49,326 nucleotides of DNA from Betaproteobacteria bacterium (GCA_025351455.1 JANXVW010000264.1:1-49326); one strand, 5' to 3'; counted from the first letter of the stretch, positions 25,940 to 46,163 are shown. Notes: generated from the sequence alone by a model not told the origin. A program made the numbers and translations.

Positions 25940-26051
25940 TTTTATTCTCGATTGGCGGGCGCGGCCGGTTTTGCGTCCGCGCCTTCAGGATGCGGGATCG
26001 GGAAAGGCAGCGCGGCAGGCACAGGCAATTCAACGCAACGGGCGGCCTGCA

Positions 26052-27743: not shown

Positions 27744-27789
27744 GGTTTACCCCTTTTGTGGGAGCGGCACGCGTTCCGGAACGGCTCAG

Positions 27790-28875: not shown

Positions 28876-28977
28876 GTCCGCCCCTATTCCTTTTCCAAGC
28901 GCAAGGCACCAGTCTCGGCTGCCAGCATGTCGTGCCTCTACCCGCCCCCATGGTCCGGATGGATGTCTGCGGCGCCG

Positions 28978-30129: not shown

Positions 30130-30232
30130 GGCGTCGCTCAAATTCTCAGTCCGGTGGACATCCCGGTTGCCGCGCATCGAATGCGTCGGACGAACGAAAT
30201 GGCGCCGCCGGCAGGCCGGCGATCGGCCGGGT

Positions 30233-31123
30233 TCAAAACGAGTTGAAAACGGTCCCGACGATATGAGCGCCCATGTCGCCCAATTCGCGGATGACGGTCT
30301 TGGTATCGGCAAGGCGGGTGGTGTCCTTGCGTGCCACCACCAAGGCGTTGCCGGCCCGGAAAGCCACTGCCTGCGCATCCGCGTAAGCCCGCGCCGGCGC
30401 GGTATCGATGAGAATGACATCGAACTCGGTGCGCAATTCGTGCAGCAGAACGCCCAACCCCAGGCCCGCCAGCAATTCCTGCGGGTTCGGGGGTCGCGCG
30501 CCGGCGGGCAACAGCGAAAGCGCGCCGAACTCCGGAACCGAAGCAATCGCACTACGGCCCGCGCGTCCGGAGAGCACCGCGGACAAGCCGACGCGATCGG
30601 AAATATTGAAAATCTGATGCTGGCGCGGATTGCGCAGGTCAGCGTCGATCAGAAGCGTGCGTTCGCCAAGCTGCGAGAAAGCGACGGCCAGGTTGGCGGC
30701 GACATAGCTGCGCCCTTCGCCGGCGCCCGGACTGACGATCGCAAGAACCCGGTGCTTGACCCCGGCCCTGGACCAGCGGATCAGTAACTGGGTCCGCAGT
30801 CCGCGCAATTCTTCGGCGCGCGGGTTGAACGGATCCTGCGCGATGACGAGTTCGTCACTGAAGCTGTCCTTGCCGGGAAGCAGATGCGGAAGGTTGTATT
30901 GCTTCGCGATGGCGCCATGCAGGTCATCGATATTGATCAGGCCCAGGCGAAGCGCGGCGTCGCCGAATCTCAAGCCCTCCATGTGCTGCAGTTGCATCAC
31001 CCGCTGGATGTCTGCAGCGTCGAGCCGGCCTTCCTCCGCGAGGATGCTTCCGATCCGGCGGTCGCCTCGCACGAGGGAGACGCTGGATCCTTCGATAGGC
31101 AGAACATTTTCCTGGGGAGTCAT
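30233..31123 (-). CDS. epsG: Chain length determinant tyrosine-kinase EpsG
   Basis: 'IGSILAEEGRL', 'EELRGLRTQL', Walker A-like 'GEGRS', 'LIDADLR', 'ILIDT'; directly follows epsF. Confidence 0.88.
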   Translation of the reverse strand: MTPQENVLPIEGSSVSLVRGDRRIGSILAEEGRLDAADIQRVMQLQHMEGLRFGDAALRLGLINIDDLHGAIAKQYNLPHLLPGKDSFSDELVIAQDPFNPRAEELRGLRTQLLIRWSRAGVKHRVLAIVSPGAGEGRSYVAANLAVAFSQLGERTLLIDADLRNPRQHQIFNISDRVGLSAVLSGRAGRSAIASVPEFGALSLLPAGARPPNPQELLAGLGLGVLLHELRTEFDVILIDTAPARAYADAQAVAFRAGNALVVARKDTTRLADTKTVIRELGDMGAHIVGTVFNSF

Positions 31124-31132
31124 GGATTTTCC

Positions 31133-32560
31133 TCAGCCCGGATTGGGCAATCGGGGACGGTTGCTGCCGGACCAGCCAAGCAGGCGTTGCGCAGCGGGCG
31201 CGCGCTCGTTGAGCACGGCAAGCAGCGGCACTTCCAGTTCGAGATCGTTGCGTGAGCGCACCCTGCGGTCGAGCAGTTCCAGCAGCATGACCATTGCGAT
31301 GCCGAGGATCGTTCCGACGACCACCGACAGCGCGATGTTCAGGAAAATCTTGGGGCGCGAATGTTTGCGTGGCACGGCCGCCGGATTCAGCACCAGGACA
31401 CTGGTCTGGTTGACGCGGCTGTCGACCTGGCTGCTGACGGAGCGCTGCATGGCCGTGTCGTAGGCCCGTTCGGCAGACTCCACGTTGCGCCTGAGCACCG
31501 TCAGCTCGTTGCGACCTTCCTTGAGCGCGAGGACGCGCGCACGCTGTGCGTCCATGGCTTTGCGGGTTTGCGCTTCGCGCTGGCGGCTCTGCTGCGCGGA
31601 GCCCGCGATACCGGCCACGATTTTTTTCATTTCCGCGTCGAGTTTGTCGCGCAGGCTCCGGTTTTCGGCCACCTGACGCTGGTATTGCGGATAGTTGACG
31701 CCGTAGTTGGCGCTCAGATCCTGCAGTCTCGCTTCACCGTGCAGCAAATCCTCCTTCAGGCGCTGGATGAACGGATTGCCGAGAATTTCCGGTATTTTGT
31801 CCGGGGACTCGCCCCGGTTCGCAAAGGTATGCGCCTGCTCCTCCCGGGATTTCCATTCGAACGTCTGTTCCTGCGCCCTGCCCACCTGCTCCGAAAGCAC
31901 CGCCAGTCGCGTGCTCTCGATGTCGCCGCGTTCATCGGGCGAGACGATTCCCTGGCGCTGGTGATAGTCGGTGAGCTTGGCCTGGGCCTCTTCGAGATGG
32001 GATCGCAGGGTTTTGAGCTGTTCGTCGAACCACGCGGCCGCCTTCTGGGTCGGCTCCACGCGCAACTCTAGCGTCGTATCGATATAGGCCTTGGCGAAGC
32101 CGTTGGCGATATCCGCCGACAAGCGCGGTTCGCGAGATGAATAGCTGACCCGGATTACGCTGCTTTGGGAGGTATCGACCTTGACGTTATCCAGCAGCCC
32201 TTCGATCAGCTTGTCTTCGATCGACCCGCCATTTTTGCCCGCTTCCTCGACCGCTTTCTGCGCCATCGGCCGTTGCGCAAGTTGCAAATCCCGCACCACC
32301 TTGCGCGCCACTTTCTCGCTGGTGATGATATCCAGTTGTGTCTGCAGGTAACTCGCCCTCTCCTGCGGCAAAACGAGCGGACGCAATACACTGTTGAGCG
32401 ACTGCTCCTCCTTCGCGTCGACCAGTAACGAGACCGTCGCCGTGTAGGATTTTGGAAGGAGGAAACTGACTGCCGCCGCGACAATGACGGTGACTGACAG
32501 GAGCAGCACAAACGCGCCCGCACGCGCGCGCAACGCCGAGAGGAACTGGTAGAGGTTCAT
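31133..32560 (-). CDS. epsF: Chain length determinant EpsF (Wzz/Wzc N-terminal-like)
   Basis: Two terminal TM segments, 'TQLDIITSEKVA', 'LELRVEP', coiled coil, 'LELLDRRVRS'. Confidence 0.88.
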   Translation of the reverse strand: MNLYQFLSALRARAGAFVLLLSVTVIVAAAVSFLLPKSYTATVSLLVDAKEEQSLNSVLRPLVLPQERASYLQTQLDIITSEKVARKVVRDLQLAQRPMAQKAVEEAGKNGGSIEDKLIEGLLDNVKVDTSQSSVIRVSYSSREPRLSADIANGFAKAYIDTTLELRVEPTQKAAAWFDEQLKTLRSHLEEAQAKLTDYHQRQGIVSPDERGDIESTRLAVLSEQVGRAQEQTFEWKSREEQAHTFANRGESPDKIPEILGNPFIQRLKEDLLHGEARLQDLSANYGVNYPQYQRQVAENRSLRDKLDAEMKKIVAGIAGSAQQSRQREAQTRKAMDAQRARVLALKEGRNELTVLRRNVESAERAYDTAMQRSVSSQVDSRVNQTSVLVLNPAAVPRKHSRPKIFLNIALSVVVGTILGIAMVMLLELLDRRVRSRNDLELEVPLLAVLNERAPAAQRLLGWSGSNRPRLPNPG

Positions 32561-32597
32561 ATGGTTACCGGATGTGCTTTGCTGTCGGTTGGACTGG

Positions 32598-33464
32598 CTA
32601 GAACAGGCTTTCCTTCACATAGATCACATCGCCGGGCCGCACGGGCTCGAAGAGCTTCGCTTCGATCTTGCGCACGCCCCCGCCGGTCTGGCGGCGGTGA
32701 ATCGTGAGGCCGCGATCGCTGCCGCGCGGCGTGAGCCCGCCTCCCAGCGTCAGCGCGTGCATGACAATCATATCGGGCTCCAGCCGGTAGACTCCCGCGC
32801 GCTGGACTTCTCCGTAGATGTAAAAAACGGGTGCATGCTGGACAAAAATCATGTCGCCGTTCTGGATCTCGATATTGGTGGACATGTCGCCCTTGGCGAT
32901 CATCTCCGCGATGTTGATCTCCCGCTTGTTCTCCAATCCTTTGCGGTTGCTCACCACGGTGACCGTGTCGGCCCCATCGGGACTGATGCCCCCGGCGAGC
33001 GCCACGATGTCAGTGATCGTCAGGCTGGCATCATCCAGCGCATAGCGCCCGGGGCGTGCAACGTTGCCAAGAACCGATACCTGCCGGCTGCGTACCTGGA
33101 TTACCGCGACGTTTACCTGAGGATTGTTCATGAAGTGCCCCTGCTTGAGTTGCGCCGCGATACGGCTTCCCGCATCCGCCGGGGTCTGCCCGGCAAGCGC
33201 AATCTCTCCGAGCAGCGGAAATACGATCGTCCCGCGCTCCGAGATTCGCACCTCGGTATTGAGATCCGGATTCTGGAATACGGTCACGCGTATGGTGTCG
33301 CCGACGCCGAGCGTCTCGCGCGAAGCAGCATCCGCCCCGATTGCGAACGCAAACAAGACAGCAGCGGCCAGCGCGGCGATCCATCGCGATGCTGGCCGGG
33401 CCGCGTTTGTGGCAAATAAACATCGGGGTCCTGTATGCCGTGCCAACTGGCTCTCGATTGTCAT
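32598..33464 (-). CDS. epsE: Polysaccharide export protein EpsE (Wza/SLBB)
   Basis: 'LGVGDTIRVTVFQNPDL', SLBB repeats, C-terminal 'DVIYVKESLF'. Start 33464 or 33479. Confidence 0.9.
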   Translation of the reverse strand: MTIESQLARHTGPRCLFATNAARPASRWIAALAAAVLFAFAIGADAASRETLGVGDTIRVTVFQNPDLNTEVRISERGTIVFPLLGEIALAGQTPADAGSRIAAQLKQGHFMNNPQVNVAVIQVRSRQVSVLGNVARPGRYALDDASLTITDIVALAGGISPDGADTVTVVSNRKGLENKREINIAEMIAKGDMSTNIEIQNGDMIFVQHAPVFYIYGEVQRAGVYRLEPDMIVMHALTLGGGLTPRGSDRGLTIHRRQTGGGVRKIEAKLFEPVRPGDVIYVKESLF

Positions 33465-33492
33465 GTCCTGTCCTTCCATTTGGGAGAAGTGC

Positions 33493-34443
33493 CTACCTCA
33501 ATCTGGTGAGATCGCTTGTGTCGCGCGCCACGCCCGGGTCCGCGGTACGAAGGGGCGTCCGCGCGGCGACTTGCGTCACCGTTGCCGGGCGGACAGTCTC
33601 GGTGCCGTCGTGGCCGGCCTTCGCCTTTTCGCGCAACTTTTCGACTGCCGCCTGGACCAATTCGAGGCGCCTGTGGTTGAGAAGATATTTGGCGATCGCG
33701 GGTCCGGCCTGCTTCTCGCTGAGCGGAGCCTCGGTAACCTGCTCGAGGCGCAACACCGAAGCGCCGAGCGCATTGGGAAACATGGCGATCTGGCCATCGT
33801 GCATCACGAAGAGCCGCTGCAGGATATTCATCGGGATCTGTTCCGCGGTCCTGCTGGACACGGCCGCTTCGAAGGAAAGCTTCCGGGAATCGAGCCATCG
33901 CACGACCTCGGCGAGGTCTTTCGCCCCTGCCACCACATCCTGCAACGCGCCGAGTTGGGCCGGCGCGACGACAACCACCAGCTCAAGCACGCGATAGAGC
34001 CGGCGTTGCCCGAATAGCGCCGGATTCTCTGCGTAGAATTTGCCGATTTCCCGCGGACTCGCCTGCGGCGCGGAAGGAACGGTCCGCTCAACATAGGCCT
34101 GCGCGAGGATCTGCCGCCTTGCGCCTTCGATCGCCTGCGCGACTTGAGCGTCGCGATCCAGCCTGCTTTGCACCGCCTCCTGCGCCAGCAACTCCTGGTC
34201 GGCCGCCCGCACCGGGGCAGGCACGGCAGGCCGCGCAGACGGCGTGCGCATTACGCTTTCGTCTTGTGCCTGGTCGCCTCTCAATCGCGCCGCCGAAACT
34301 GTCTCGCTGCCGGACTGCGCGCCGATCCGGCTGAAGGGTTTACCGATGTCGGGCTTGCCACACGAACACAGGGCCAATGCGACGGCCGTCCACAGGGTAA
34401 GGACGCGAAGTTTTTTGACCATGGCTGGGTTTGCGCGATGCAT
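33493..34443 (-). CDS. epsD: EpsD family peptidyl-prolyl isomerase-like lipoprotein
   Basis: Lipobox 'LCSC'; 'DQELLAQEA...LDRD..V.QAIE.ARRQILAQAY'; 'YAENPALF..RRLY'. Start 34443 or 34422. Confidence 0.8.
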   Translation of the reverse strand: MHRANPAMVKKLRVLTLWTAVALALCSCGKPDIGKPFSRIGAQSGSETVSAARLRGDQAQDESVMRTPSARPAVPAPVRAADQELLAQEAVQSRLDRDAQVAQAIEGARRQILAQAYVERTVPSAPQASPREIGKFYAENPALFGQRRLYRVLELVVVVAPAQLGALQDVVAGAKDLAEVVRWLDSRKLSFEAAVSSRTAEQIPMNILQRLFVMHDGQIAMFPNALGASVLRLEQVTEAPLSEKQAGPAIAKYLLNHRRLELVQAAVEKLREKAKAGHDGTETVRPATVTQVAARTPLRTADPGVARDTSDLTRLR

Positions 34444-34622
34444 ATCGTCGTGCGATTTTGGCAGTGGTTGAAACCGTTCGATCGGATGGAGCCGTGCCGT
34501 ACAAATGCGATCCAATACTAAAGGTGCGATGTTTATCGGTGACCTTCTGACATGGTCCGAACGGACCATCCGTCTCCTGTTTGACTGTTTTCGACCGCCT
34601 GTCCCGGCGCGGCTGCGGCCCC

Positions 34623-35162
34623 TCAGTCCGCGAACGAACCGCGCTTGCGCCTGGCCATGAACGCCACGACGACCACGCCGCAAAGCAGCGTCATCCAGTC
34701 GGTGGGTTCAGGCATGTTGGCGGACGCAAACAGGAATCGCGCATCGGCAGGCGAACGCGATGCGCCGGACCGGGATGCAAAAAGTTCGTCGGCAACAGCA
34801 AGCGCGGACAAATCGCCGAAGGCGCCATTCATCGCGGATAACTCTCCCAGCAACGATGGGGTGGCATTCACCCCGGCGAGCCGCTTCGGCATCGTTTCGG
34901 CGACATTGGAAAGTTCGGAAAAGGTACCGGCACGCACGCGGCCGGTCGCATCGCCCGCCGGCCGCAAGGTCTGCCCTGCGTCCGACAGGTTGACGATTTC
35001 CGCAAATGAATACGAAGCCGAAATACCGGATGTGAAGCGGGGACTGGGGTTCGCTGGCTCGGCAACTGCGGCATCGGTGATCTCGCCGGCCGCTTCGGCG
35101 CGGGCCAATCCCAGCGCGCCCATCACTGCGGCAACCATCAACAGTTTTTTCAGGGTGTTCAT
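34623..35162 (-). CDS. PEP-CTERM-like sorted surface protein
   Basis: Signal peptide 'MNTLKKLL...ARA'; C-terminal 'MPEPTDWMTLLCGVVVVAFMARRKR' (PEP + TM + basic cluster); RBS GGAGGA. Confidence 0.75.
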   Translation of the reverse strand: MNTLKKLLMVAAVMGALGLARAEAAGEITDAAVAEPANPSPRFTSGISASYSFAEIVNLSDAGQTLRPAGDATGRVRAGTFSELSNVAETMPKRLAGVNATPSLLGELSAMNGAFGDLSALAVADELFASRSGASRSPADARFLFASANMPEPTDWMTLLCGVVVVAFMARRKRGSFAD

Positions 35163-35456
35163 GCTTCCTCCAGCAACTGCGTTTCCTTTCGGAGCCGCCG
35201 TTCGTGCAAGGCGCTCCTTCCTCCGCGTTTTGGGATGCGCCGAGATGCATCGGATTGTTCACCTGCGCGGTGTGGCCGAACGCCGGGCCGAACACGGGAC
35301 CAAACGTCAGACCACCCGCAAGACCATGCTATGCGTGACCGATTACACAGGTATATCGCCCGGCGACGTCAACAACGCGCCGAACGGACCACGTCGGATG
35401 CACGCAAAGGCGACAAGCGTTCAACGGACACCGGCTCCGCGCCGCGGGCGCGGATT

Positions 35457-36401
35457 TCACAGACTCAGAATGCGCAATTCCAGCGCCTTGCCGACCGCCT
35501 GCGCGCGATTGACCACGTTGAGTTTGCGTAATATTTTCTGCACATGATTCTTGACTGTCAGAGGACTGATGTTGAGGATGGCGCCGATCTCGAAATTGCT
35601 TTTCCCCAGATAGATCCATCTCAGGATTTCCCGCTCCCTGGGCGTGATGGTGCTCGTGCGCGCCGGTTTGGGAACATCATTGCCTCTGGCGCGCCCGTTC
35701 ATGCGGCTGCGTATCCAGGCCGCATGCAGAAACGGCACCACCAGTTGCACGAAATAGGCCTGCCGGTGCGTGTCCGCTCCCGGTGCGCAGGCAAATATGA
35801 AGAAACTCGCCGCCGCGCCTTCGGCGTCATGGGTCCCGTGGGCGACGACGTGCGTTGCCCCTGCCCGCTCCAGTTCCCTTGCGAATGTGCCCCCGGCCAA
35901 CGCGCTCAGGTCTGCCAACGCGCAAACCACGGGACGAAAGCGGCGCTCTTCCCATGCCTTGATGAAGCCAGGGGCAGCCGGTGCATCGCGCAGGAAAGCT
36001 TCGCTGAAGATTGCAGGGTCCGCCGCGTTCATGGCAAAGCTGTCAACGGAAAGCGCGATCCCTTCACCGCCGCGCAGTGCGCAGACCAGCACTTCATGCC
36101 TGATCAGGCTTTGCAGCAGGCCCTGGGTCCAGCTGAAGAAGTGCGGTCGCGAATGCACCCTGACGGAGTTCTCCATGTTTAGTATCAGGCACTCCTGCTC
36201 GACGGCGTACAGCGACTGCCCGGAGTCCGCCGTGACGTCTTTTTCCGCGGCCGGATCGGCGGCAAGTGCGGCCTCGGGTACATAGTGCTGCGTCATTTTG
36301 GGTGTGATCAGTTGCATCGCGCCTTTACCGTCGGAAGCCAGAAGGGGGTGGGGAAATGGTTCGCCTGCGGTTTGCATGAAAAGGGAATGGCTATCCGTCA
36401 T
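35457..36401 (-). CDS. epsA: LuxR-family regulator EpsA (PEP-CTERM/EPS associated)
   Basis: 'HFFSWTQGLLQSLIRHEVLVC'; HTH 'TPREREILRW...GKSNFEIGAILNISPLTVKNHVQKILRKLNVVNRAQAV'. Start uncertain. Confidence 0.85.
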   Translation of the reverse strand: MTDSHSLFMQTAGEPFPHPLLASDGKGAMQLITPKMTQHYVPEAALAADPAAEKDVTADSGQSLYAVEQECLILNMENSVRVHSRPHFFSWTQGLLQSLIRHEVLVCALRGGEGIALSVDSFAMNAADPAIFSEAFLRDAPAAPGFIKAWEERRFRPVVCALADLSALAGGTFARELERAGATHVVAHGTHDAEGAAASFFIFACAPGADTHRQAYFVQLVVPFLHAAWIRSRMNGRARGNDVPKPARTSTITPREREILRWIYLGKSNFEIGAILNISPLTVKNHVQKILRKLNVVNRAQAVGKALELRILSL

Positions 36402-36583
36402 GTGCGACGCGGCGCGCGCGCAGTCACGTTCACGATTCGGGAAGACATTCCGCTGCGTAGTCCAATGGGGCTATCGCACAAGCTTTCGCGCTGCATCAAG
36501 GGGCACCTCGTCTGTTCTAAGCTGTCTGCACATCGGGATCCTGACGAAATCATTTATCTACTCTCACTCTTCTCACTCTCACT

Positions 36584-37999
36584 GTGCCGACCATTCCACC
36601 CTTGCCTGCCTTCCACGATGCCCAGCCCCGTCTGTCGCTCAGCAAGCTCGGCCTTGTCGCCCTGCTGCGTAGCGCGATCGATCCGGCGGTAGCGATCGGC
36701 ATCCTCGTCATCTCGGCGCTCTGGTTCGAAGGCCGGTTCGATGGTCCCTACCTGATTCTGGCGCTGCTCGTGTTCCCGATGACGTATCCGAACAGCCTGC
36801 CGCGCGGCGCTTCCGACTCCGGCGCCCTGGTGCGCAACGTCGTAACGGGGTGGCTCTCCATGATTGCGTTGTTGATGCTGATCGGATGGGTTTCGGGAAC
36901 GCTGAATGCATTCGACCAGCGTGCGATCCTTGCATGGCTTGTCGTCACCCCGCCGGCACTGTTCGCGGCCCACCGCCTGATCGGAGCGGTCATGCCACGA
37001 ATGCTTGCTGCCGAAGGCCTGCAACGCACCGCCGTCATTGCGGGAGCGAATGAGACAGGATGCAGACTCGCGGAGCGCATAGCGGCCAATCCGTTCCTCG
37101 GAACCCGGGTATCCGGTTACTTTGACGACCGAGGAACGCAACGGATGGATCATTTGCGCCGTGGCCCCAGTCTTGGCTCACTGAGCCAGCTCGCCGAGTA
37201 CGTGAAAGCCCATCACGTCGACCTCATCTATATCGCGCTGCCGATGGCTTCGCAGCCCCGCATCCTGAGGTTGCTGGAGGAACTCCACGATACGACCGCT
37301 TCGATCTATTTCGCTCCGGATGTTCACTTGTTCGACCTGGTGCAGGCGCGGGTCGACACCATCGGAGGCTTGCCCATCGTTGCCGTGCGCGAATCGCCTT
37401 TCTACGGCGCCGATGGCCTGATCAAGCGCGCGAGCGACATCGTCCTTGCGTCCGCCATCCTGCTGGCCATCTCGCCGCTGATGATCGCCATCGCGATCGG
37501 CATAAAACTGAGTTCGCCGGGTCCCGTCCTGTTCAAACAGCGCCGTTACGGACTCGATGGCCGGGAAATCGTGGTCTACAAATTCCGCTCCATGAACGTG
37601 CTCGAGGATGGAGACGTAATCCGGCAGGCAACGCGCGGCGATCAGCGCGTGACGCGTTTCGGGGCATTTCTGCGTGCCTCGTCTCTCGACGAGTTGCCGC
37701 AGTTCATCAACGTGCTGCAGGGGCGCATGAGCGTCGTCGGCCCCCGTCCCCACGCCGTAGCCCACAACGAGATGTACCGCAAACTCATTCGCGGCTACAT
37801 GATCCGCCACAAGGTCAGGCCCGGCATTACCGGCCTGGCCCAGGTAAACGGGATGCGCGGCGAAACCAGTTCGATCGACAAAATGCAGATGCGCGTCGCA
37901 TACGACCTCGCCTACCTGCGGAGCTGGTCGTTGTCGCTCGACCTGCAGATCGTACTGAAGACGATCGTCGTGGTGCTGAGGGCGCGGAATGCTCATTGA
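36584..37999 (+). CDS. epsB: Undecaprenyl-phosphate glucose phosphotransferase (EpsB/WcaJ)
   Basis: 'KRASDI', 'FKQRRYGLDG', 'KFRSM', 'SLDELPQFINVLQGRMSVVGPRP', 'KVRPGITGLAQVNG'. Confidence 0.93.
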   Translation: MPTIPPLPAFHDAQPRLSLSKLGLVALLRSAIDPAVAIGILVISALWFEGRFDGPYLILALLVFPMTYPNSLPRGASDSGALVRNVVTGWLSMIALLMLIGWVSGTLNAFDQRAILAWLVVTPPALFAAHRLIGAVMPRMLAAEGLQRTAVIAGANETGCRLAERIAANPFLGTRVSGYFDDRGTQRMDHLRRGPSLGSLSQLAEYVKAHHVDLIYIALPMASQPRILRLLEELHDTTASIYFAPDVHLFDLVQARVDTIGGLPIVAVRESPFYGADGLIKRASDIVLASAILLAISPLMIAIAIGIKLSSPGPVLFKQRRYGLDGREIVVYKFRSMNVLEDGDVIRQATRGDQRVTRFGAFLRASSLDELPQFINVLQGRMSVVGPRPHAVAHNEMYRKLIRGYMIRHKVRPGITGLAQVNGMRGETSSIDKMQMRVAYDLAYLRSWSLSLDLQIVLKTIVVVLRARNAH

Positions 38000-38006
38000 G
38001 ACCATT

Positions 38007-38699
38007 TCAGGCCGCATCCGTCCGATAGCGATAGCCGAGTCCGCGCACCGTCTCGATCGCCTTGTCGTGTCCGGTGGGAGCCAGGCCCTGGCGCAGCCTG
38101 CGGATGTGGACGTCCACGGTGCGCTCTTCGACAAACGCATCATGGCCCCATATCTCATCGAGGAGCTTGGCCCGGCTGAAGATGCGGCCGACGTGGGTCA
38201 TGAAGAAATGAAGCAAACGAAACTCCGTGGTCCACAATTCGATTTCGCAGTCACCAGCCGTAATGCGGCGCGACGCCGGGTCAAGCTGGAGTCCCGCGAT
38301 CTCGATCACGTCGTCCGCCAGTTGCGGCGCGCGCCGGCGCATGACCGCCTTGATGCGTGCAAGCAACTCGCGACCGGAATACGGTTTTGTTACATAGTCG
38401 TCCGCTCCACCCTCCAGCGCCGCCACCTTGTCCTGCTCATCTGCGCGCTCGCTGATCAGGACGATCGAAATGTCGCGGGTACGCTGGTCGCTGCGAAGCC
38501 GGCGCGTGAAGGGCAGGCCGGGAATCCCGGGCAGCACCCAATCGAGCAGCACCAGATCGGGACGCCCCTCGCGCATGAGGACCTCGGCCTGGGCGACGTC
38601 GCCAGCGCAACGTACCTTGTATCCGGAACTCTGAAGATTGGCGGCCAGCAACTGCCGGGCCGGCGCTTCGTCTTCAACTACGAGAATCGAGCCGTACAT
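38007..38699 (-). CDS. PhoB-like OmpR-family response regulator (orphan paralogue)
   Basis: 'LLDWVLPG', 'GADDYVTKP', 'EFRLLHFFMTH', 'ERTVDVHIRRLR'. RBS AAGGAG before ATG 38699. Confidence 0.85.
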   Translation of the reverse strand: MYGSILVVEDEAPARQLLAANLQSSGYKVRCAGDVAQAEVLMREGRPDLVLLDWVLPGIPGLPFTRRLRSDQRTRDISIVLISERADEQDKVAALEGGADDYVTKPYSGRELLARIKAVMRRRAPQLADDVIEIAGLQLDPASRRITAGDCEIELWTTEFRLLHFFMTHVGRIFSRAKLLDEIWGHDAFVEERTVDVHIRRLRQGLAPTGHDKAIETVRGLGYRYRTDAA

Positions 38700-38815
38700 G
38701 GTGGACTTCTCCTTGATCATGGAATTCCCGAAGGCATCCCTGTGCGCCCCGCTCATTTTTGATTGCGGCCGTGGATCCCTGCGTACGACTACGGGAATTT
38801 GACCCGACCATCGTA
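38700..38815 (-). other. Conserved structured 5' leader, copy A
   Basis: Homologous to 41060-41166 and 42736-42836; ends in a cUUCGg hairpin followed by CCAUGAUCAAGGAG. Confidence 0.6.
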
Positions 38816-38821
38816 GAGGTG

Positions 38822-38864
38822 ACTATCCGCCCGCGTCGCCGGACGGTCCGTGCGCTTGCGCACA
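38822..38864 (-). promoter_or_regulatory. Putative class II CRP/FNR-type promoter, copy A
   Basis: Palindrome CGTGCG-CTTG-CGCACA (38849-38864), centre 29.5 bp from the first base of a minus-strand GATAGT (38827-38822). Confidence 0.65.
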
Positions 38865-39181
38865 TAACCGGGAAAAGAAAAAAAGCGTCTGCTGGGATTC
38901 GCGGCATCGTCGCGACCTGCTTGCCCGCCTCCCCATTCAATCCTGCATCGCTGCCCGTGCAGCCGTGCCGAGGGTAAGGCGTTATCCCCCGAACGCAGCG
39001 CAACTGCATGGCACTATTTGACGCGGCGTGCCACCTCGTGCGGCCATACGCTGCACGTCCATGGAAAACACGGGACAGGATTTTGGCCGGCCGAACGGCC
39101 GGCGGCGATCATGCGGCACATTGCCGCGTCATGATCTTGCTGCTGACCAAGCCGGCTGCTAGGCGCTTCTCCGGGGGATTT

Positions 39182-40297
39182 TCATGGCTGTCCCGGCGGG
39201 AGCATCGGGATCGAGACGGATACCGTCGTACCGCGGCCGGGCACACCGTGGATGCTTACCTCGCCGTCAAAAAGCTGCGCGCGTTCCTGCATGCCCAGCA
39301 GGCCCAGCGATTCGCGGCCGAGAATCTGACTATCCGTTATTCCGATGCCGTCGTCGACCACCGCGAGCTTGAGAACATCCGCGGCAATGCTCAGGTTCAC
39401 CTCGACGCTGTTCGCCTTTGCATGGCGCGCGATGTTCGTCAGGATTTCCTGGAATATCCGGAATACGGCCGTCGATAATTCCCTGTCCAGCTCCACCTGT
39501 TCCTGCGGAAGCTTGAGCCGGCAACGCATTCCCATGCGCTTCTGGAATTCATTCGCCTGCCAGCGGAAGGCCGCCACCAGGCCCATGTCGTCGAGAATTT
39601 CCGGCCTCAGGCCGGTCGAAATCCTGCGGATGAGGTGCATCGTCGAGTTGATGAGCTGGCTCATGGCTTCGGCCTTCTCCACGAGCTGCTCCTCGGTTCC
39701 GGCGAGGCGTTTAGCCAGCCAAGTCACGTCCATCTTGAGACCCGTCAGCACCTGGCCCAATTCGTCGTGGATTTCGCGCGCAATCCGGGCGCGCTCTTCT
39801 TCGCGGATTGAAATCAGGCGCGCGGCCAGCGCCCGCAACTGCACTTCCGACTCCCGCAATTGCTCTTCCGCGACTGTCCTTTCCTTGATTTCGTTGGTCA
39901 GCGCGGCGTTCTTCTTGTGCAAATCGACGAATACGGACACTTTCGATCGCAATACCTCCGGCACGAACGGCTTGGTCAGGTAATCCACCGCCCCGACTTC
40001 GTAGCCGCGAAATGCGGATTCCATTTCCATCGATACGCCGGTCAGGAAGATGATTGGCGTGTAGCGGGAGCGCTCGCGCGAGCGGATCAGCCTGGCGGTT
40101 TCGAAGCCGTCGATTCCCGGCATCCGAACGTCGAGGAGAATCACTGCAAGGTCGTGCTCGAGCACCATGCGCAGTGCCTCTTCGCCGGACTGCGCGCGCA
40201 GCAGGTTCTGTCCGAGTGGCTGCAGCAATGCCTCGAGCGCCAGCAGATTCCTGGGTTCGTCGTCGACCATGAGAATGTCGGCTTTCCAGTTCTCCAT
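39182..40297 (-). CDS. Hybrid receiver domain + HisKA_3 histidine kinase (no sensor domain)
   Basis: 'ILMVDD...ILLDVRMPG...YLTKP'; 'EERARIAREIHDELGQ'; 'FRIFQEILTNIARHA'; 'DDGIG'; 'LGLLGMQER'. Confidence 0.88.
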   Translation of the reverse strand: MENWKADILMVDDEPRNLLALEALLQPLGQNLLRAQSGEEALRMVLEHDLAVILLDVRMPGIDGFETARLIRSRERSRYTPIIFLTGVSMEMESAFRGYEVGAVDYLTKPFVPEVLRSKVSVFVDLHKKNAALTNEIKERTVAEEQLRESEVQLRALAARLISIREEERARIAREIHDELGQVLTGLKMDVTWLAKRLAGTEEQLVEKAEAMSQLINSTMHLIRRISTGLRPEILDDMGLVAAFRWQANEFQKRMGMRCRLKLPQEQVELDRELSTAVFRIFQEILTNIARHAKANSVEVNLSIAADVLKLAVVDDGIGITDSQILGRESLGLLGMQERAQLFDGEVSIHGVPGRGTTVSVSIPMLPPGQP

Positions 40298-40410
40298 GCG
40301 CGTCCCGCGTTGTGGTTGGTCGATTCGTCCGCACCCTCGCCCGACTGCCGGACTTCCGGACTTCCGCGAAAGATACCCTGTCTGCGCAGTCTGTGCGCCT
40401 GGAACAAACA

Positions 40411-40440
40411 AAAAAAAGGACCCACGCTCGGGTCCTTTTT
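40411..40440. terminator. Intrinsic (bidirectional) terminator
   Basis: AAAAAAAGGACCC-ACGCTC-GGGTCCTTTTT downstream of the 40514-41059 gene. Confidence 0.8.
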
Positions 40441-40513
40441 AATTTCGTTGGAAGGATGGTCAGTGCATCGCTATGCGGCGTGATCTGCTTTCACCTTCCC
40501 GAGTACCGCATGG

Positions 40514-41059
40514 TTACGAAGGGGATTGCGCACCCGTGCATCCGCTCGCAGTATTGCGCGTCCCCGTGAACTGGGTGGTACCCGTGCAAGTGAACGTGGA
40601 AGGGGCATCCCCAACGTAACTCCAGTTCGAGGTGCCCGAAAAACCGTTGCAATCCGACGCGACGGTGGAAGTGAGCGAATTGATTGTCGTGATTCCGCCC
40701 CGCTCCGGGAAACTGCCCGACCAGCTGGCCGCGTCTCCCTTGATCGTCCCTTGAAAGGTCGTCGGCGTGGCAGTGTTGGTCCGCTCCCCTGATACAGTGA
40801 GGGCATTGCCGGTCTGCGTGATCGTCACCGGATAGGTCGCCAGCGCATTGCCGGGCGGCATACATTCCGGAGCGGGCGACGTTATTCCTGTTTCGGTAAT
40901 CGTCCACACACCGGCAATGTTGCCAATCGGCGCCGGCGTTGCTGCGGGCGCTGCCGGTGCCGCATCACCTCCGCCTCCACCGCATCCAGCCACAACAGCA
41001 GCCAGCGATACTGCAATCAACCAACTCAGAGGCCTGAAAACATTTCCGAAGCTATTCAT
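40514..41059 (-). CDS. Hypothetical Thr-rich lipoprotein
   Basis: Lipobox 'VAGC-GGGGG', Ala/Pro linker, beta-rich Cys-containing domain. RBS AGGAG before ATG 41059. Confidence 0.7.
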   Translation of the reverse strand: MNSFGNVFRPLSWLIAVSLAAVVAGCGGGGGDAAPAAPAATPAPIGNIAGVWTITETGITSPAPECMPPGNALATYPVTITQTGNALTVSGERTNTATPTTFQGTIKGDAASWSGSFPERGGITTINSLTSTVASDCNGFSGTSNWSYVGDAPSTFTCTGTTQFTGTRNTASGCTGAQSPS

Positions 41060-41166
41060 AAAATTTCTCCTGGTCATGGGATGCCGAAAGACATCGTTAT
41101 GCGGCTGATTCGTTACTGCCGCCAGAGTCTGCGCACGGCACCGAGGTTTTGGCCCCGAGCGTCGTA
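41060..41166 (-). other. Conserved structured 5' leader, copy B
   Basis: Hairpins GCGGC...GCCGC and GAUGUC-UUUC-GGCAUC, then CCAUGACCAGGAG; homologous to copies A and C. Confidence 0.55.
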
Positions 41167-41172
41167 ACGATG

Positions 41173-41215
41173 ACTATCCGGATCTGTCGCGCACCTTTCT
41201 GTGCGGTCGCGCACA
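41173..41215 (-). promoter_or_regulatory. Putative class II CRP/FNR-type promoter, copy B
   Basis: Perfect palindrome TGTGCG-GTCG-CGCACA (41200-41215), 29.5 bp from a minus-strand GATAGT (41178-41173). Confidence 0.7.
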
Positions 41216-41270
41216 TAATGTGAAAAGAAAAGTTCGATAGCGTACTTAGCCGTTCATCATCGACGCGTTA

Positions 41271-41286
41271 TGTTCGCTGTCGCACA
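41271..41286. promoter_or_regulatory. Additional upstream palindromic site
   Basis: TGTTCG-CTGT-CGCACA followed by TAAC as in copy A; centre is 71 bp from the copy B site. Confidence 0.5.
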
Positions 41287-41421
41287 TAACCCGGATGCTC
41301 GGTCTCTTTGTTACGCAGAGATGACTGAACATCTTGCTCACCTATCCCGACGTTTCGTATGACAGACGCAGCATTGGGCGAGCGTGCAGAGAGCACGCGG
41401 CCGGGAGGACGCAGTCCCGTC

Positions 41422-41457
41422 TCTCTATATATCTTTGGCTGTCTCTATATATCTTTG
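41422..41457. repeat. Direct repeat, 16 bp unit, 20 bp period
   Basis: TCTCTATATATCTTTG at 41422-41437 and 41442-41457. Confidence 0.85.
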
Positions 41458-41800
41458 ATTGGGGCACACATCGGTCAAAGCATGCGGCAAAAAATGATGC
41501 TCGAGCTGAAGCCCGATCCCCAAAAGTTGTACCGACATCTCAAGCGCATATTCGGTCACCGAGGCGCGATGCCTTCGTGCACTGGCGCACAGACGCGGAA
41601 AGAATTCGGTGGCGTTTTGGGTACAAAGACAAGTGGACCCGAACGTGACGCGACGATTTGAGTGGCAGGGCTTCCCGAATGAATAACGCGGGAATACGGG
41701 TAGCGATCTAGCTGGTGTCGCCTTCTCCAACCGCCAACGCAGGTTGGGAAGACGCGAATAAGCAATACGACACCGTAGATTCAGCAGAAAAGCAGGCTCT

Positions 41801-41840
41801 AAAATAAAAAAAGGACCCGGTCCGGGTCCTTTTTATTTTT
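41801..41840. terminator. Intrinsic (bidirectional) terminator
   Basis: AAAATAAAAAAAGGACCCGG-T-CCGGGTCCTTTTTATTTTT downstream of the ice-binding gene. Confidence 0.85.
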
Positions 41841-41892
41841 GCGAGTTCAGGTTTTCCGGATCGGCGTTCAGCCTGTCCGGTTACCCTTGCTG

Positions 41893-42735
41893 TTACGGTC
41901 CGACGGCGTTTTGGTCAAGACTGACCGCTGTGCCTGCGAACAGTCTGCCGTTTATGGTTGCGCCAGTTTGCATCCCGATCGATGTTTGAGACAGGATGGT
42001 CCCCTTGAATTTCGAGGTCGTGTTGAGGCTCGCGGCAGCGAAGGTCGCCCAGTAAATGTTCTGCGGCAAGGCGCCGCCGGCGAGGATGATCTGCACGCCG
42101 GGACTAACCGTGAGGCCTTGCGCGATCTGAAAGATCCAGACATCGTTGGGGCCGCCTGTAAGCGTGAGATTCGACGCGATGAGAACGCCGGAGCTCCATT
42201 TGTAAGTAGCAGGGGCGAGATTGAGGCCGCTGATATTGCCGGCTCCAAGTTCCGTGTAGTCGGGTGCCCGACTGTTGGCATCGGTGTACGCGGTTCCGGC
42301 GTCGTTTACCGCGGTGGTCAACGCCGAAGAATCAATAAACGAACATGCCGCAATATTAGCGCCGCCAGCTGTTGCTACGTGTATCGGCGTCGCCGATGAT
42401 CCCGTCACTTCCGGACAAGTCAAGCCAGTGACAAAAGTACCCGCTGCTGGGGACAAACCTACTTCACCGGTAATAGCTGAAGTCGGAACATCTGAAACTG
42501 CCGATTGCGCCAAAATTCTGAAATTGGCGGCCGACCCCATGATAACGGGTGCGGGACCCCGGCCCGCGCCGCCTACGCCTGTACCTTGACCAGGAGCATT
42601 CCCCGCTCTTGAGGAGGGAAACCCATTCCCGCCCCCACTCCCACTACCACTACTACCACACCCAGCTACGGCAACGGACAATAGCAATGCGGGAATCAAC
42701 GGCATTAGCTTCGATAAGCTTCCGAATCTATTCAT
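41893..42735 (-). CDS. Ice-binding family (DUF3494) lipoprotein
   Basis: Lipobox 'VAGC' + Gly/Ser linker; 'FRILAQSAV...ITGEVGLSP', 'LGAGNISGLNLAPATYKW', 'VWIFQI', 'NIYW', 'GRLFAGTAVSLD'. Confidence 0.9.
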   Translation of the reverse strand: MNRFGSLSKLMPLIPALLLSVAVAGCGSSGSGSGGGNGFPSSRAGNAPGQGTGVGGAGRGPAPVIMGSAANFRILAQSAVSDVPTSAITGEVGLSPAAGTFVTGLTCPEVTGSSATPIHVATAGGANIAACSFIDSSALTTAVNDAGTAYTDANSRAPDYTELGAGNISGLNLAPATYKWSSGVLIASNLTLTGGPNDVWIFQIAQGLTVSPGVQIILAGGALPQNIYWATFAAASLNTTSKFKGTILSQTSIGMQTGATINGRLFAGTAVSLDQNAVGP

Positions 42736-42836
42736 AGGTCACTCCTGATCATGGAATCCCGAAGGTCTCGGTGTGCGCCCAGGAAATTCCGGCCGCGGAT
42801 CCCTACGTGCGGTGCCAGGGCGGCACCGTGCATATG
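42736..42836 (-). other. Conserved structured 5' leader, copy C
   Basis: CGGUGCC/GGCACCG hairpin, a middle hairpin, a cUUCGg hairpin, then CCAUGAUCAGGAG. Confidence 0.6.
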
Positions 42837-42842
42837 CTGGAG

Positions 42843-42885
42843 ACTATCACACTTCAGGGGGAGCCAGTCGGTACGCTAGCGCAAA
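42843..42885 (-). promoter_or_regulatory. Putative class II CRP/FNR-type promoter, copy C
   Basis: GGTACG-CTAG-CGCAAA (42870-42885), 29.5 bp from a minus-strand GATAGT (42848-42843). Confidence 0.6.
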
Positions 42886-43118
42886 TCAGACTGAGACAAA
42901 CGCTGGAATACCCGCCAGGTCCGCCCAGTCGCACGGTGATTATCTGGATTAAATGCGATCAGCATGTTATTCATTTATCCCGTAATTTCAAAAAATACGA
43001 TTCGCAATTTGATCCAAAAGGAGGCGTCCTACAAATCGATTTTCGACTTGTTGACTTCTTGCATCGCACAAGCCATAAACGTGAAACGAATCAGCTTCCA
43101 GGCCCCTCCAAAAAAAAC

Positions 43119-44936
43119 ATGAACGAATCGCGAATCCTCTATTCCATCGTCCCGACCAACCCCGAAGCCCACTTGTTCGAAGTCCGCTGCACCGTCGACA
43201 ATCCGGATCCACGGGGCCAAACGTTCTCCTTGCCGACGTGGATTCCGGGCAGCTACCTGATCCGTGAATTCGCCAAGCACGTCGTGCGCATCCGCGCGCA
43301 CAGCGGCCGCAAGCTGCTGAGGCTGGTGAAACCGGACAAAAACACCTGGCAGGTCGAGCCGTTCGAAGGGCCTGTGACTCTGACGATGGAGGTCTACGCC
43401 TGGGATCTGTCAGTGCGTGGCGCGCATCTCGATACGACACACGCCTTCTTCAACGGTCCCGCCGTCTTTCTGCAAGTCGAAGGACGCGTGGACGAGCCGG
43501 TCGAAGTCGAGATCCTGCCGCCCAAAGGCGCGAAATACCGGAACTGGGGCGTGGCCACGGCGATGCGGCGCAAAGGCGCCAGGCCCTATCTGTTCGGCAC
43601 CTATGAAGCGGCGGACTACGACGAACTGATCGACCATCCGGTCGAGATGGGCACGTTCGAGCTGGCGACGTTCAGGGCCGGCGGCGTGCAGCACGACATC
43701 GCGATCACCGGCCGGCATCGCGCCGACATGCGGCGGCTCACGAAAGACCTGAAGACGCTATGCGAAACCCAGATCGCATTCTTCGGCACTCCCGCGCCGA
43801 TGGATCGTTACGTATTCCTGGTGACCGCGGTCGGTGACGGCTACGGCGGCCTGGAGCATCGCGCTTCGACGGCGCTGATCTGCGCGCGCAATGATTTGCC
43901 GCATGAAGGCATGGACAAGCCGAGCGGCGGCTATCGCACGTTTCTCGGCCTGGCCAGCCACGAGTATTTCCACACCTGGAACGTCAAGCGCATCAAGCCC
44001 GCCGCTTTTACCCCTTACGACCTCGATCGCGAGAATTACACGACGCTGTTGTGGGCCTTCGAGGGCTTCACCTCTTATTACGATGATCTGCTGCTCGTGC
44101 GTTCCGGGCTCATGCCGCGCGGCACTTACCTCGAAACCCTGGGCCGCAATATCACCACGCTTCTGCGCACCAGCGGCCGCAAGAAGCAGACGGTCGCGGA
44201 GTCGAGCTTCGATGCGTGGATCAAGTACTACCGCTCGGATGAAAACATGCCGAATGCCGGCGTCAGCTATTACGGCAAAGGCAGCCTGATCGGGTTGAGC
44301 CTCGACCTGATGATCCGCAACCAGACCGGCGGACGAAAATCGCTGGACGACGTGATGCGCGCATTGTGGAAACGCTACGGCATGACAGGAATCGGCGTCC
44401 CGGAAGATGGCATCGAAAAGATCGCCGAACAGGTGACCGGCGTGAAGCTCAAGCGCTTCTTCGACCAGGCGGTGCGCTCTACCGCAGACCTGCCGCTGCA
44501 GAAATTGCTGGATACGGTCGGCGTCGATATGGTGCTGAGGCCGGCGCGCTCAGGCGTGGATCGCCGTGAACGCAAGCCGACCCGCGCGGAACTCGCGGCC
44601 GATCGCGGTGTGGCGCTCGGCATTCGCACCGGCAGCGAAGGCGGGAACGTGCGCATCACGCACGTACTCGATGGCGGAACCGCCCAGCAGGCCGGGCTGT
44701 CTTCCGGCGACGTCGTCATTGCCATGGATGGACTGCGCGTCACGCTGGACAACTTCGAAACCCAGTTGTCGCGTTACAAGGCCGGCCAGATCATTACGCT
44801 GCACACGTTCCGTCGCGATGAACTCCATGTCGTGAACGTGACGTTGGCCGCCGCCAGGCCGGATGCCTGGTCGCTAACTGTCAACGACGATCCCGCCGGG
44901 GCCCGCAATCGCAAGCGCTGGCTTCATACGGATTAG
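43119..44936 (+). CDS. M61 glycyl aminopeptidase with C-terminal PDZ domain
   Basis: 'LPTWIPGSYLIREFA', 'GGLEHRAST', 'HEYFHTWNVKRIKP', 'EGFTSYY'; PDZ 'AQQAGLSSGD'. Start reassigned to ATG 43119. Confidence 0.93.
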   Translation: MNESRILYSIVPTNPEAHLFEVRCTVDNPDPRGQTFSLPTWIPGSYLIREFAKHVVRIRAHSGRKLLRLVKPDKNTWQVEPFEGPVTLTMEVYAWDLSVRGAHLDTTHAFFNGPAVFLQVEGRVDEPVEVEILPPKGAKYRNWGVATAMRRKGARPYLFGTYEAADYDELIDHPVEMGTFELATFRAGGVQHDIAITGRHRADMRRLTKDLKTLCETQIAFFGTPAPMDRYVFLVTAVGDGYGGLEHRASTALICARNDLPHEGMDKPSGGYRTFLGLASHEYFHTWNVKRIKPAAFTPYDLDRENYTTLLWAFEGFTSYYDDLLLVRSGLMPRGTYLETLGRNITTLLRTSGRKKQTVAESSFDAWIKYYRSDENMPNAGVSYYGKGSLIGLSLDLMIRNQTGGRKSLDDVMRALWKRYGMTGIGVPEDGIEKIAEQVTGVKLKRFFDQAVRSTADLPLQKLLDTVGVDMVLRPARSGVDRRERKPTRAELAADRGVALGIRTGSEGGNVRITHVLDGGTAQQAGLSSGDVVIAMDGLRVTLDNFETQLSRYKAGQIITLHTFRRDELHVVNVTLAAARPDAWSLTVNDDPAGARNRKRWLHTD

Positions 44937-44991
44937 GGCTTTCCACCCAATACAGATACCCTACGCGCGAAGCAAGTCGGAGTACCCTTTT

Positions 44992-45216
44992 AGGCACAGA
45001 GGGCACGGAGGACACGGAGAAGGGCAATGAAAGTGACGAACGGTATCAGTGGAAGGAAATATTGTGGCTGTAGCTATACTCACAATTGAAGCTAACCGTT
45101 GAGTCAGACATTTTCCAATTGTCCGTTAATATTCCACGGCTGCCTCAACCTCCGCCTATCGATCGTCCAGCATCTTTCCTTTGTTTTTCTCCGTATCCTC
45201 CGTGTCCTCTGTGCCT
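44992..45216. repeat. 30-bp inverted repeat with 9-nt internal periodicity, flanking a 165-bp AT-richer spacer
   Basis: AGGCACAGAGGGCACGGAGGACACGGAGAA (44992-45021) vs TTCTCCGTATCCTCCGTGTCCTCTGTGCCT (45187-45216); 28/30 complementary. Confidence 0.85.
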
Positions 45217-45234
45217 CCGTGTCGGGTGGAGGTA

Positions 45235-45957
45235 TTAAAGGACTATTTCGGAGCGAAGGCGCGCGATGGTGGGCAGGAGGTTGAGGCCGGTGCGGGACTT
45301 GAGTTTTTGGGCGGCGGAGCGCAGGTCGTCAAGCGCGCGGCGAATCGGTGCGCCAATCTTTGCAATCACGACGGTATTGGCGTCGCACGGCGGCAATGCC
45401 ACTACGCGATCGTCGAAGGCTTTGCGGATGGGATCGGCATTCGGTTTGTTCCGCGCACGGCTGAGCATGTTGGTCACCATCATGCCGCCGCCGGCAAGCC
45501 GCGCCCGGCACATGCGGTAAAACGGTGAAGTGTGCAGCCTGCCCGCGCTGCCATGGGCATCGAAGCCATCGACCAGGATGAGATCGAACCGGCGGCGCGT
45601 CGTTGCCATGTACTTGTACCCGTCCCCGATTTCGATATGCAGGCGCGCCGATTCTTCCGGTAATTCAAAAAACTGCCATGCGTTCAGGACCACCTCCGGA
45701 TCGATCTCCACCACGTCGAGTTTTGCTTTCGGGAAGTAGCGATGCAGAAAGCGTGTGATCGACGCCGCGCCGAGCCCGACCTGCAGCACGCTGCGCGGCC
45801 ATTCCTGACTCCGCGGCAAGAGCAACGGCACCATCATTTCGCGGGTGTAGTCGAGTTCGAGCGCCCAGGTGCGCGAGAGCCGCATCGCGCCCTGGATCCA
45901 ATGCGGATCGAACTGCAAATAACGCACACCGCGTTCTTCGTTGATACGGATGGGCAT
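45235..45957 (-). CDS. Spermidine-synthase-like SAM-dependent methyltransferase
   Basis: 'WIQGAMRL...LELDYTREMM', 'LQVGLGAAS', 'VVEIDPEV', 'DLILVDGFD'. Confidence 0.85.
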   Translation of the reverse strand: MPIRINEERGVRYLQFDPHWIQGAMRLSRTWALELDYTREMMVPLLLPRSQEWPRSVLQVGLGAASITRFLHRYFPKAKLDVVEIDPEVVLNAWQFFELPEESARLHIEIGDGYKYMATTRRRFDLILVDGFDAHGSAGRLHTSPFYRMCRARLAGGGMMVTNMLSRARNKPNADPIRKAFDDRVVALPPCDANTVVIAKIGAPIRRALDDLRSAAQKLKSRTGLNLLPTIARLRSEIVL

Positions 45958-46163
45958 GTGGGTGGCGGAATTAGAAAGGGCGGAATACTACCTAATACTT
46001 GCAACCATTACACCCGCACGGTTGGGTGTAGACAGGTATTTGATGAGGCTGCTGGCAGATGCCGATGCAGGCCCGGTAGCGAAGGCGGCGAAAAGGATAT
46101 AAATTGAACGCAGTACAGCCCTGTCATCGCCCAAGGTCGCCTCACAAAAAAAGGAAGCGCGTC

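Follow-up and report, generated by a model that had tools for sequence, protein, structure and literature searches.

Why do three neighbouring genes with unrelated products begin with the same stretch of non-coding DNA? The question is raised by a 49,326-nt sequence (the window, meaning the whole stretch that was analysed) from the genome of an uncultured soil betaproteobacterium (GCA_025351455.1, JANXVW010000264.1), in which a response regulator gene (gene A), a lipoprotein gene (gene B) and an ice-binding-like lipoprotein gene (gene C), all on the minus strand, are each preceded by a copy of one promoter and one leader (copies A, B and C; Table 1). The initial annotation of this DNA took the leaders for a structured cis-regulatory RNA, perhaps a thermosensor or a riboswitch. 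A cassette of a Crp/Fnr-like regulon that has been duplicated and recombined agrees better with the evidence gathered here than does a new riboswitch or thermosensor, and on balance we lean towards seeing the three elements as copies of a lineage-specific expression cassette and not as a stand-alone RNA device.

Homology, geometry and spread of the three copies

The leaders of the three unrelated genes are homologous, as had been proposed: all copies were recovered on the minus strand where they had been placed, and the three upstream regions (211 nt each, aligned with MAFFT) have a mean column identity of 72%. The conserved blocks described for A and C were also found again, with CGTACGCAGGGATCCACGGCCG and CGCACGTAGGGATCCGCGGCCG differing in 3/22 columns (19/22 identical) and the block next to the Shine-Dalgarno (SD) site matching its description. 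In global alignments of the leaders, the matches per aligned columns were 70/101 for A-C, 73/106 for A-B and 61/101 for B-C. When BLAST E-values were scaled to the 3.94-Mb genome, A-C (79 nt, 73%) and A-B (176 nt, 67%) both reached E = 1e-4, and B-C gave nothing at E <= 10. Compared pair by pair, the leader sequences thus appear only modestly more similar than chance, and it is the wider family of copies that settles their homology. The homology also reaches further than the initial annotation had noticed, upstream past the leader through a -10 element and a palindromic operator, and downstream into the lipoprotein signal peptides of genes B and C.

The three copies have the same geometry. Exactly 21 nt separate the end of the palindromic box from GATAGT in all of them and, given GATAGT as the -10 hexamer, the centre of the 16-bp palindrome TGTGCG-N4-CGCACA falls at about -41.5 from the predicted start. 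No canonical -35/-10 pair was found at the three promoter sites. Downstream of box and -10 element there is a predicted 5' untranslated region (5'UTR) of 100-116 nt and then the SD site. The starts that had been predicted near 38815, 41166 and 42836 agree with the GATAGT element, which lies in the GGATAGTC block, 99% conserved over 65 copies.

Judged from its sequence, the leader is a real family outside Rfam. A sequence-only covariance model (R1) gave 67 matches in genomes and metagenome loci, 65 of them distinct, and these 65 copies, from 18 related genomes and soil metagenomes, make up the leader set used here. Within the genus there were 41 matches in 16/37 genomes, with up to six per genome (the tallies over 37 genomes, here and below, take in one unpublished genome, G049, which is negative in every one). 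An order-wide sample had 2/151 positive genomes, the own genome and G027, and the family of G027 had 2/29, both of one genus. The carriers are metagenome-assembled genomes of uncultured Burkholderiales or Betaproteobacteria, mostly from soil. A profile of the three copies found no fourth full copy in the own genome, the next matches being the promoter part alone. Among the 42 aligned genome copies, 29 precede lipoprotein genes, eight precede regulator genes and five stand in other contexts; the lipoproteins are of the DUF3494 type (260-386 aa) or small (169-187 aa). One regulator gene behind the leader (L049, G022:C35, at about 84.9-85.7 kb) reads as a 75-aa open reading frame (ORF), the protein match resuming at residue 56 further on; a frameshift, a disrupted gene or a misassembly could explain this. 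In agreement with the earlier view that the leader is no known riboswitch, Rfam 15 (cmscan with permissive filters over 36000-46000) gave no match on the three leaders; two chance-level matches lay elsewhere in that interval (E 4.5 and 6.9), far below gathering. A full-text literature search, judged partly from titles and the beginnings of abstracts, returned nothing on the leader or the operator.

Table 1. Cassette copies, the genes they precede and neighbouring features in the window.
Feature	Position	Strand	Remark
Copy A, 16-bp palindromic box	38849..38864		TGTGCGCAAGCGCACG; 1 mismatch to TGTGCG-N4-CGCACA
Copy A, -10-like GATAGT	38822..38827	-	within conserved GGATAGTC
Copy A, 5'UTR	38700..38815	-	predicted; predicted start to base preceding ATG
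Copy A, hairpins	38815-38784, 38769-38746, 38740-38721	-	thermodynamic prediction only
Copy A, SD	38714-38709	-	AAGGAG
Gene A	38007..38699	-	response regulator, 230 aa, Response_reg + Trans_reg_C
Copy B, palindromic box	41200..41215		TGTGCGCGACCGCACA; perfect
Copy B, second box nearby	41271..41286		1 mismatch; 71 bp upstream of the first
Copy B, GATAGT	41173..41178	-	
Copy B, 5'UTR	41060..41166	-	predicted
Copy B, hairpins	41165-41132, 41122-41101, 41095-41080	-	predicted
Copy B, SD	41070-41067	-	GGAG
Gene B	40514..41059	-	lipoprotein, 181 aa; signal peptide MNSFGN...AGC
Intrinsic terminator	40413..40440	-	3' of gene B
Copy C, degenerate box	42870..42885		TTTGCGCTAGCGTACC; 13/16; same 21-nt distance to GATAGT
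Copy C, GATAGT	42843..42848	-	
Copy C, 5'UTR	42736..42836	-	predicted
Copy C, hairpins	42828-42810, 42796-42775, 42771-42759	-	predicted
Copy C, SD	42746-42742	-	AGGAG
Gene C	41893..42735	-	ice-binding-like lipoprotein, 280 aa, PF11999 / DUF3494; signal peptide MNRFGS...AGC
Intrinsic terminator	41808..41834	-	3' of gene C
Hybrid kinase between copies A and B	39182..40297	-	REC-HisKA_3-HATPase; without cassette of its own
Priming sugar transferase	36584-37996	+	Bac_transf + CoA_binding_3; exopolysaccharide locus
LuxR/GerE regulator	35457-36401	-	exopolysaccharide locus

The palindromic box and the Crp/Fnr-like regulators

The spacing of the palindrome, TGTG-N8-CACA, is that of CRP-type sites. 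In the own genome the boxes recur on two other contigs, where they adjoin genes for Crp-like proteins having HTH_Crp_2 plus a weak cNMP_binding match, and one of these genes has a box 76 bp upstream of its own start. The same contigs also hold GGDEF/EAL, PAS-kinase and KaiC-like genes. The islands on contigs C10 and C277 of genome G000 (loci L271 and L270) have four to five boxes each and three Crp/Fnr-like genes. Also encoded there are several REC/PAS GGDEF and EAL proteins, besides hybrid kinases, a KaiC-like ATPase and a CheB-CheR-PAS fusion.

The Crp-like family has expanded within the genus, individual genomes having up to 10 paralogues. When membership was set at E <= 1e-40, at least two boxes were found in 23/23 of the genomes with the family and at least four in 19/23, and 12/14 of the genomes without it had two boxes at most, which is also the most that the reversed control pattern gave in any of the 37 genomes. 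The family is present in 15/16 of the leader-bearing genomes. As the genomes are kin, the co-occurrence is support for the tie and not a test of it. The palindrome tracks the expanded Crp/Fnr-like family, and the promoter therefore reads as a class II activator-dependent one, for which we infer from co-occurrence and neighbourhood that the Crp/Fnr-like proteins are the candidate activators.

The response regulator was also considered as the binder of the palindrome and is the less likely candidate. All 13/13 genomes that have an orthologue of it (at least 80% identity) are box-rich, but 8/21 box-rich genomes show none, and the regulator would more plausibly belong to the regulon than control it. 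Several regulator-type copies in other genomes (L077, L082 and L124 among them) have two or three boxes in a row. The sister clade of the regulator (75-82% identity; loci L098-L129) has no leader, and the palindromes upstream of it are different ones: some are TGTCG-N8-CGACA, accompanied by a conserved ATGAC-ACGACTGTTAAATAAGGG block, and others are words like TGTGCGCAAACAGACA.

Searching metagenomes for just the promoter yielded at least 122 loci, at least 117 of them distinct, upstream of many unrelated genes and leaders; among the products, as read from their N-termini, are BON-type lipoproteins, small membrane proteins and a universal stress protein. As the promoter drives many genes with unrelated leaders, we regard it as the older and wider element and the leader as an add-on in one branch of the regulon.

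Pairing, temperature and sequence constraint in the leader

Three hairpins can be drawn in each of the three copies and most copies fold them in thermodynamic prediction, so the earlier statement that they can form stands. Their folding stability was unremarkable: z was -1.64, -0.91 and -1.62 for the window copies and, measured against mononucleotide shuffles, averaged -1.0 for entire leaders and between -1.3 and -1.6 for the individual hairpins over 42 copies. The stronger statement, that pairing persists despite sequence change, failed in both shuffle and covariation tests. RNAalifold returned zero consensus pairs for the 42 copies, in which the named structure had 78.2% of its cells paired vs 76.7% in shuffles. 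With the 65 distinct copies, which for the pairing tests were aligned without structure information, pairing differed little from column shuffles in either of two registers (80.8 vs 80.0%, 33/500; 81.0 vs 80.6%, 86/500), and in the SD-proximal hairpin the central pair was unpaired in 42/56 cells. Mutual information with average product correction over 42 copies gave top pairs that are not Watson-Crick partners in any helix. An R-scape-like, tree-aware G-test (FastTree tree, Fitch events, 60 null alignments, 50 rows, 122 columns) found a best pair of E = 4.4 among 7021 and E >= 150 for all proposed pairs, at a power limited by 707 substitutions over the 122 columns. The structure is unsupported but, given the power lost to high conservation, not disproved.

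The leaders also seem hardly responsive to temperature in silico. Over 29 leaders the mean probability that the SD core is unpaired rose from 0.33 at 4 C to 0.37 at 37 C, and the SD site was not more sequestered than when the upstream part was shuffled (0.34 vs 0.28 unpaired; native lower in 17/29). Its pairing partner varies from copy to copy. Together with the lack of covariation, this speaks against the structured sensor of the initial annotation, and the cold-responsive role suggested there had the Pfam name of one downstream gene as its sole basis. A riboswitch or RNA thermometer, either a three-way junction acting as an aptamer beside the SD site or a temperature-labile fold, would be a new one given that Rfam has no match, and it is at present unsupported and in our judgement distinctly improbable. 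What speaks for it is the structure obtained with RIBOSUM-alifold, a three-way junction closed by GGGAU:AUCCC, which exceeds 500/500 shuffles on three measures (84.2 vs 82.7% paired, 24 vs 13.5 cells changed on both sides, and a higher covariation score), and the richness of the promoter's regulon in GGDEF/EAL signalling genes, which makes a second-messenger ligand conceivable. However, the junction is not significant on the robust count measures (136/500 and 79/500), the downstream genes have no common metabolic theme, and natural variants lose hairpins singly or together.

These variants indicate that the parts of the leader are dispensable one by one. The first hairpin, which in most copies begins 1-5 nt past the predicted start, is absent from three regulator-type copies (L038, L086 and L226), and the loop of the second is deleted in three others (L045, L057 and L225). 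Among lipoprotein genes belonging to one and the same family, some have leaders of about 30 nt without any hairpin (L158, L159, L164 and L165), L151 has just the first hairpin, and the leader may also be long but different, with the SD-proximal part alone in common.

The constraint on the leader sequence appears modest. Over 63 related gene pairs the mean identity was 0.68 in the leader, 0.66 in the promoter and 0.60 at four-fold sites, and for the regulator orthologues 0.67-0.82 in the leader vs 0.49-0.66 at four-fold sites. The idea that the lack of significant covariation would leave only a duplicated promoter, which the initial annotation had named as the outcome against its own reading, is largely borne out, with the qualification that the conservation of the leader somewhat exceeds that of four-fold degenerate sites in the genes behind it. 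One could then take the leader for functionless spacer that came along when a promoter and signal-peptide cassette was propagated, too recently for it to have diverged. Its uniform conservation, the missing covariation, the frequent indels and deletions of whole parts, and the similar identities of promoter and leader, little above four-fold sites, are all as expected for such a spacer. Against this, the family has been kept across two genera in different families of the order, and the leaders of regulator orthologues exceed four-fold sites that are themselves constrained by codon bias, which makes a mere spacer very improbable.

Conservation in the leader is flat, at 0.78-0.90 across stems, loops and linkers. 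As loops and linkers are as conserved as stems, sequence-specific recognition fits better than pure structure. The leader contains the motif GGNATCC twice, and the variable bases of the two occurrences are correlated (both C in 8/9 rows vs 14/48; Fisher 0.0013, without correction for kinship). In alignment A4 the positions concerned are 53, 88 and 97; the hairpin-arm base 88, opposite the GGNATCC motifs, tends to be identical and not complementary to 97 (G/G in 17 triples, C/C in 10). An internal tandem duplication of the leader (37-84 vs 83-121) was tried and rejected, its score being reached by 247/2000 shuffles, with p <= 0.05 in 4/57 rows.

Flat conservation, the correlated GGNAUCC pair and the excess over four-fold sites would all suit a docking platform for a trans-acting RNA-binding protein or small RNA, which would recognise primary sequence (GGGAUCC, AAUGAAUCA, CCAUGAUCAGGAG) and put the lipoproteins and the PhoB-like regulator under joint post-transcriptional control. 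We consider this unlikely, if still an alternative to be taken seriously, as no candidate binder was found and related genes manage without the leader or its parts. CsrA-type control was rejected, since PF02599 had no match in the 98.8%-complete genome and did match in control genomes. An antisense or small RNA partner was rejected as well: in genome-wide searches the conserved leader words match only at scattered places with 1-3 mismatches, and none of these is conspicuous as a complementary partner. A broader version, in which the leader of these uncultured soil Burkholderiales is a new riboregulator, would build on the three-way junction, in which GGGAU:AUCCC closes two hairpins, or on the twice-repeated GGNAUCC core. 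Its ligand would be a second messenger or a lineage-specific protein, through which the Crp/Fnr-like regulon of surface lipoproteins and a PhoB-like regulator would come under additional control after transcription. We hold this to be quite unlikely and leave it some room because conservation gave little power to detect covariation.

The transcribed region could also act as DNA, with operators past the start for a second transcription factor, either the PhoB-like regulator or a Crp/Fnr paralogue. The leader does contain short perfect palindromes (CGTACG, GGATCC, GCGGCCGC and TGATCA) and words resembling half-sites (GTACGC and CGCACA), the regulator is present in 10/16 leader-bearing genomes vs 3/21 others, and there are the up to 10 Crp-like paralogues to draw on. 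Still, the leader has neither a full second box nor a direct repeat at 10-11-bp spacing, the apparent excess of palindromes is small, and 6/16 leader-bearing genomes have no orthologue of the regulator, so operators within the leader seem improbable.

It is scarcely credible that the leader instead encodes a short upstream ORF of 18 codons, starting in the loop of the middle hairpin, with a TGA overlapping the main ATG, through which translation of the gene would be coupled. An ATG is found at that place in 26/36 alignable rows and ATG, GTG or TTG in 29/36, the frame is kept in 28/36, and the ORF is present in most lipoprotein-type copies. However, the per-column conservation digits, read by eye, have no three-base periodicity, the most variable columns (88 and 97) are first codon positions, and no SD site stands at the usual distance before the ATG. 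In the window, copy B has ACG there, copy C has no codon and copy A has another in-frame ATG, and the copies with the loop deleted have been named above.

The cassette, its surroundings and its meaning

In the cassette reading that we favour, the elements stand in the order putative activator palindrome at about -41.5, GATAGT -10 element without a -35, predicted 5'UTR of about 100-116 nt, AGGAG and ATG, and in the lipoprotein genes the common signal peptide comes next. A Crp/Fnr-like dimer would activate transcription in class II manner, and through duplication and recombination the cassette would have reached surface lipoprotein genes and the PhoB-like regulator gene. The leader would act in cis and sense nothing, probably setting mRNA stability and translation: one stem-loop at the 5' end or close to it, with two more local hairpins, would shield the mRNA from decay and leave the ribosome-binding site accessible.

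Several points weigh against this. The start sites and the long UTR are predictions from the -10 consensus, and the putative activator was assigned by co-occurrence and neighbourhood; the box-rich genomes G046 and G004 show no Crp-like member at E <= 1e-40. If the leader did no more than stabilise mRNA, 80-90% conservation of its loops and linkers would not be required, and uniform conservation could equally mean a dense platform for protein or RNA binding, or little elapsed time. The cassette also leaves the GGNATCC base correlation unexplained, and the GGGAU:AUCCC junction did beat all 500 shuffles, although it was derived from the same alignment.

Around the cassette copies, one intrinsic terminator follows gene B and another follows gene C, so the three genes are separate transcription units. 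The product of gene A is of the PhoB/OmpR type and barely passes the NCBIfam PhoB cut-off (302.6 vs 296.2 bits), and that of gene B matched no Pfam or NCBIfam family. The hybrid kinase between copies A and B has no sensor domain and adjoins this OmpR/PhoB-type regulator; the usual partners of HisKA_3 kinases are NarL-type regulators. The surroundings are an exopolysaccharide locus (window 26000-38000) with Wzz/GNVR, Poly_export/SLBB, GT4 transferase, epimerase and PPIase-like genes, besides those given in Table 1. In the 700-nt gap between the terminator of gene C and copy B, a word of about 19 nt (TCTCTATATATCTTTG...) stands in two tandem copies (41421-41460).

Among known systems, the promoter comes close to the class II promoters of CRP and FNR, in which the activator dimer is centred at -41.5; the CRP site of E. 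coli is TGTGA-N6-TCACA. Here, too, a 16-bp palindrome with TGTG-N8-CACA lies about 41.5 bp upstream of the predicted start and replaces the -35 element, and Crp/Fnr-family genes adjoin the boxes and co-occur with them. The half-site, however, is TGTGCG and not TGTGA or TTGAT, and the candidate regulator family has up to 10 paralogues per genome and only a weak cNMP-binding match. The leader can be compared with 5'UTR stabilisers of the ompA type, long leaders of envelope-protein genes in which a 5'-terminal stem-loop slows decay by RNase E. Similarly, a long leader precedes exported envelope proteins here, with a predicted stem-loop that would begin a few nucleotides from the predicted 5' end and an unsequestered SD site. 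Unlike in ompA, the start is a predicted one, the first hairpin is missing in some copies and the leader also precedes the gene of a cytoplasmic regulator; the sequences are unrelated. Rfam 15 includes c-di-GMP-I/II, ROSE and fourU, and the leader shares with such riboswitches and thermometers its 5'UTR place beside the SD site and its several hairpins, but it matches no family even at E <= 10, has no covariation, and leaves the SD site unmasked without melting in silico. The erp and mlp lipoprotein families of Borrelia have upstream homology boxes, and as in those families, a block of promoter, leader and signal peptide is common to lipoprotein genes with unrelated mature parts, with copies in tandem in some genomes. 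In contrast to Borrelia, which is of another phylum and has another sequence, the block here is also joined to a regulator gene without a signal peptide.

If the cassette reading is true, it would give the anatomy of a regulon in a lineage that is known only from soil metagenomes, with a Crp/Fnr-like operator whose half-site is new, a regulator family that has expanded, and a portable cassette of promoter, leader and signal peptide. It would explain how unrelated surface lipoproteins and a PhoB-like regulator come under one control. Such a finding would aid annotation and predict co-regulated genes, and it would open no new chapter. The importance would be greater if the leader binds a ligand or a protein, for which the uniform conservation and the GGNATCC correlation leave a slight opening.

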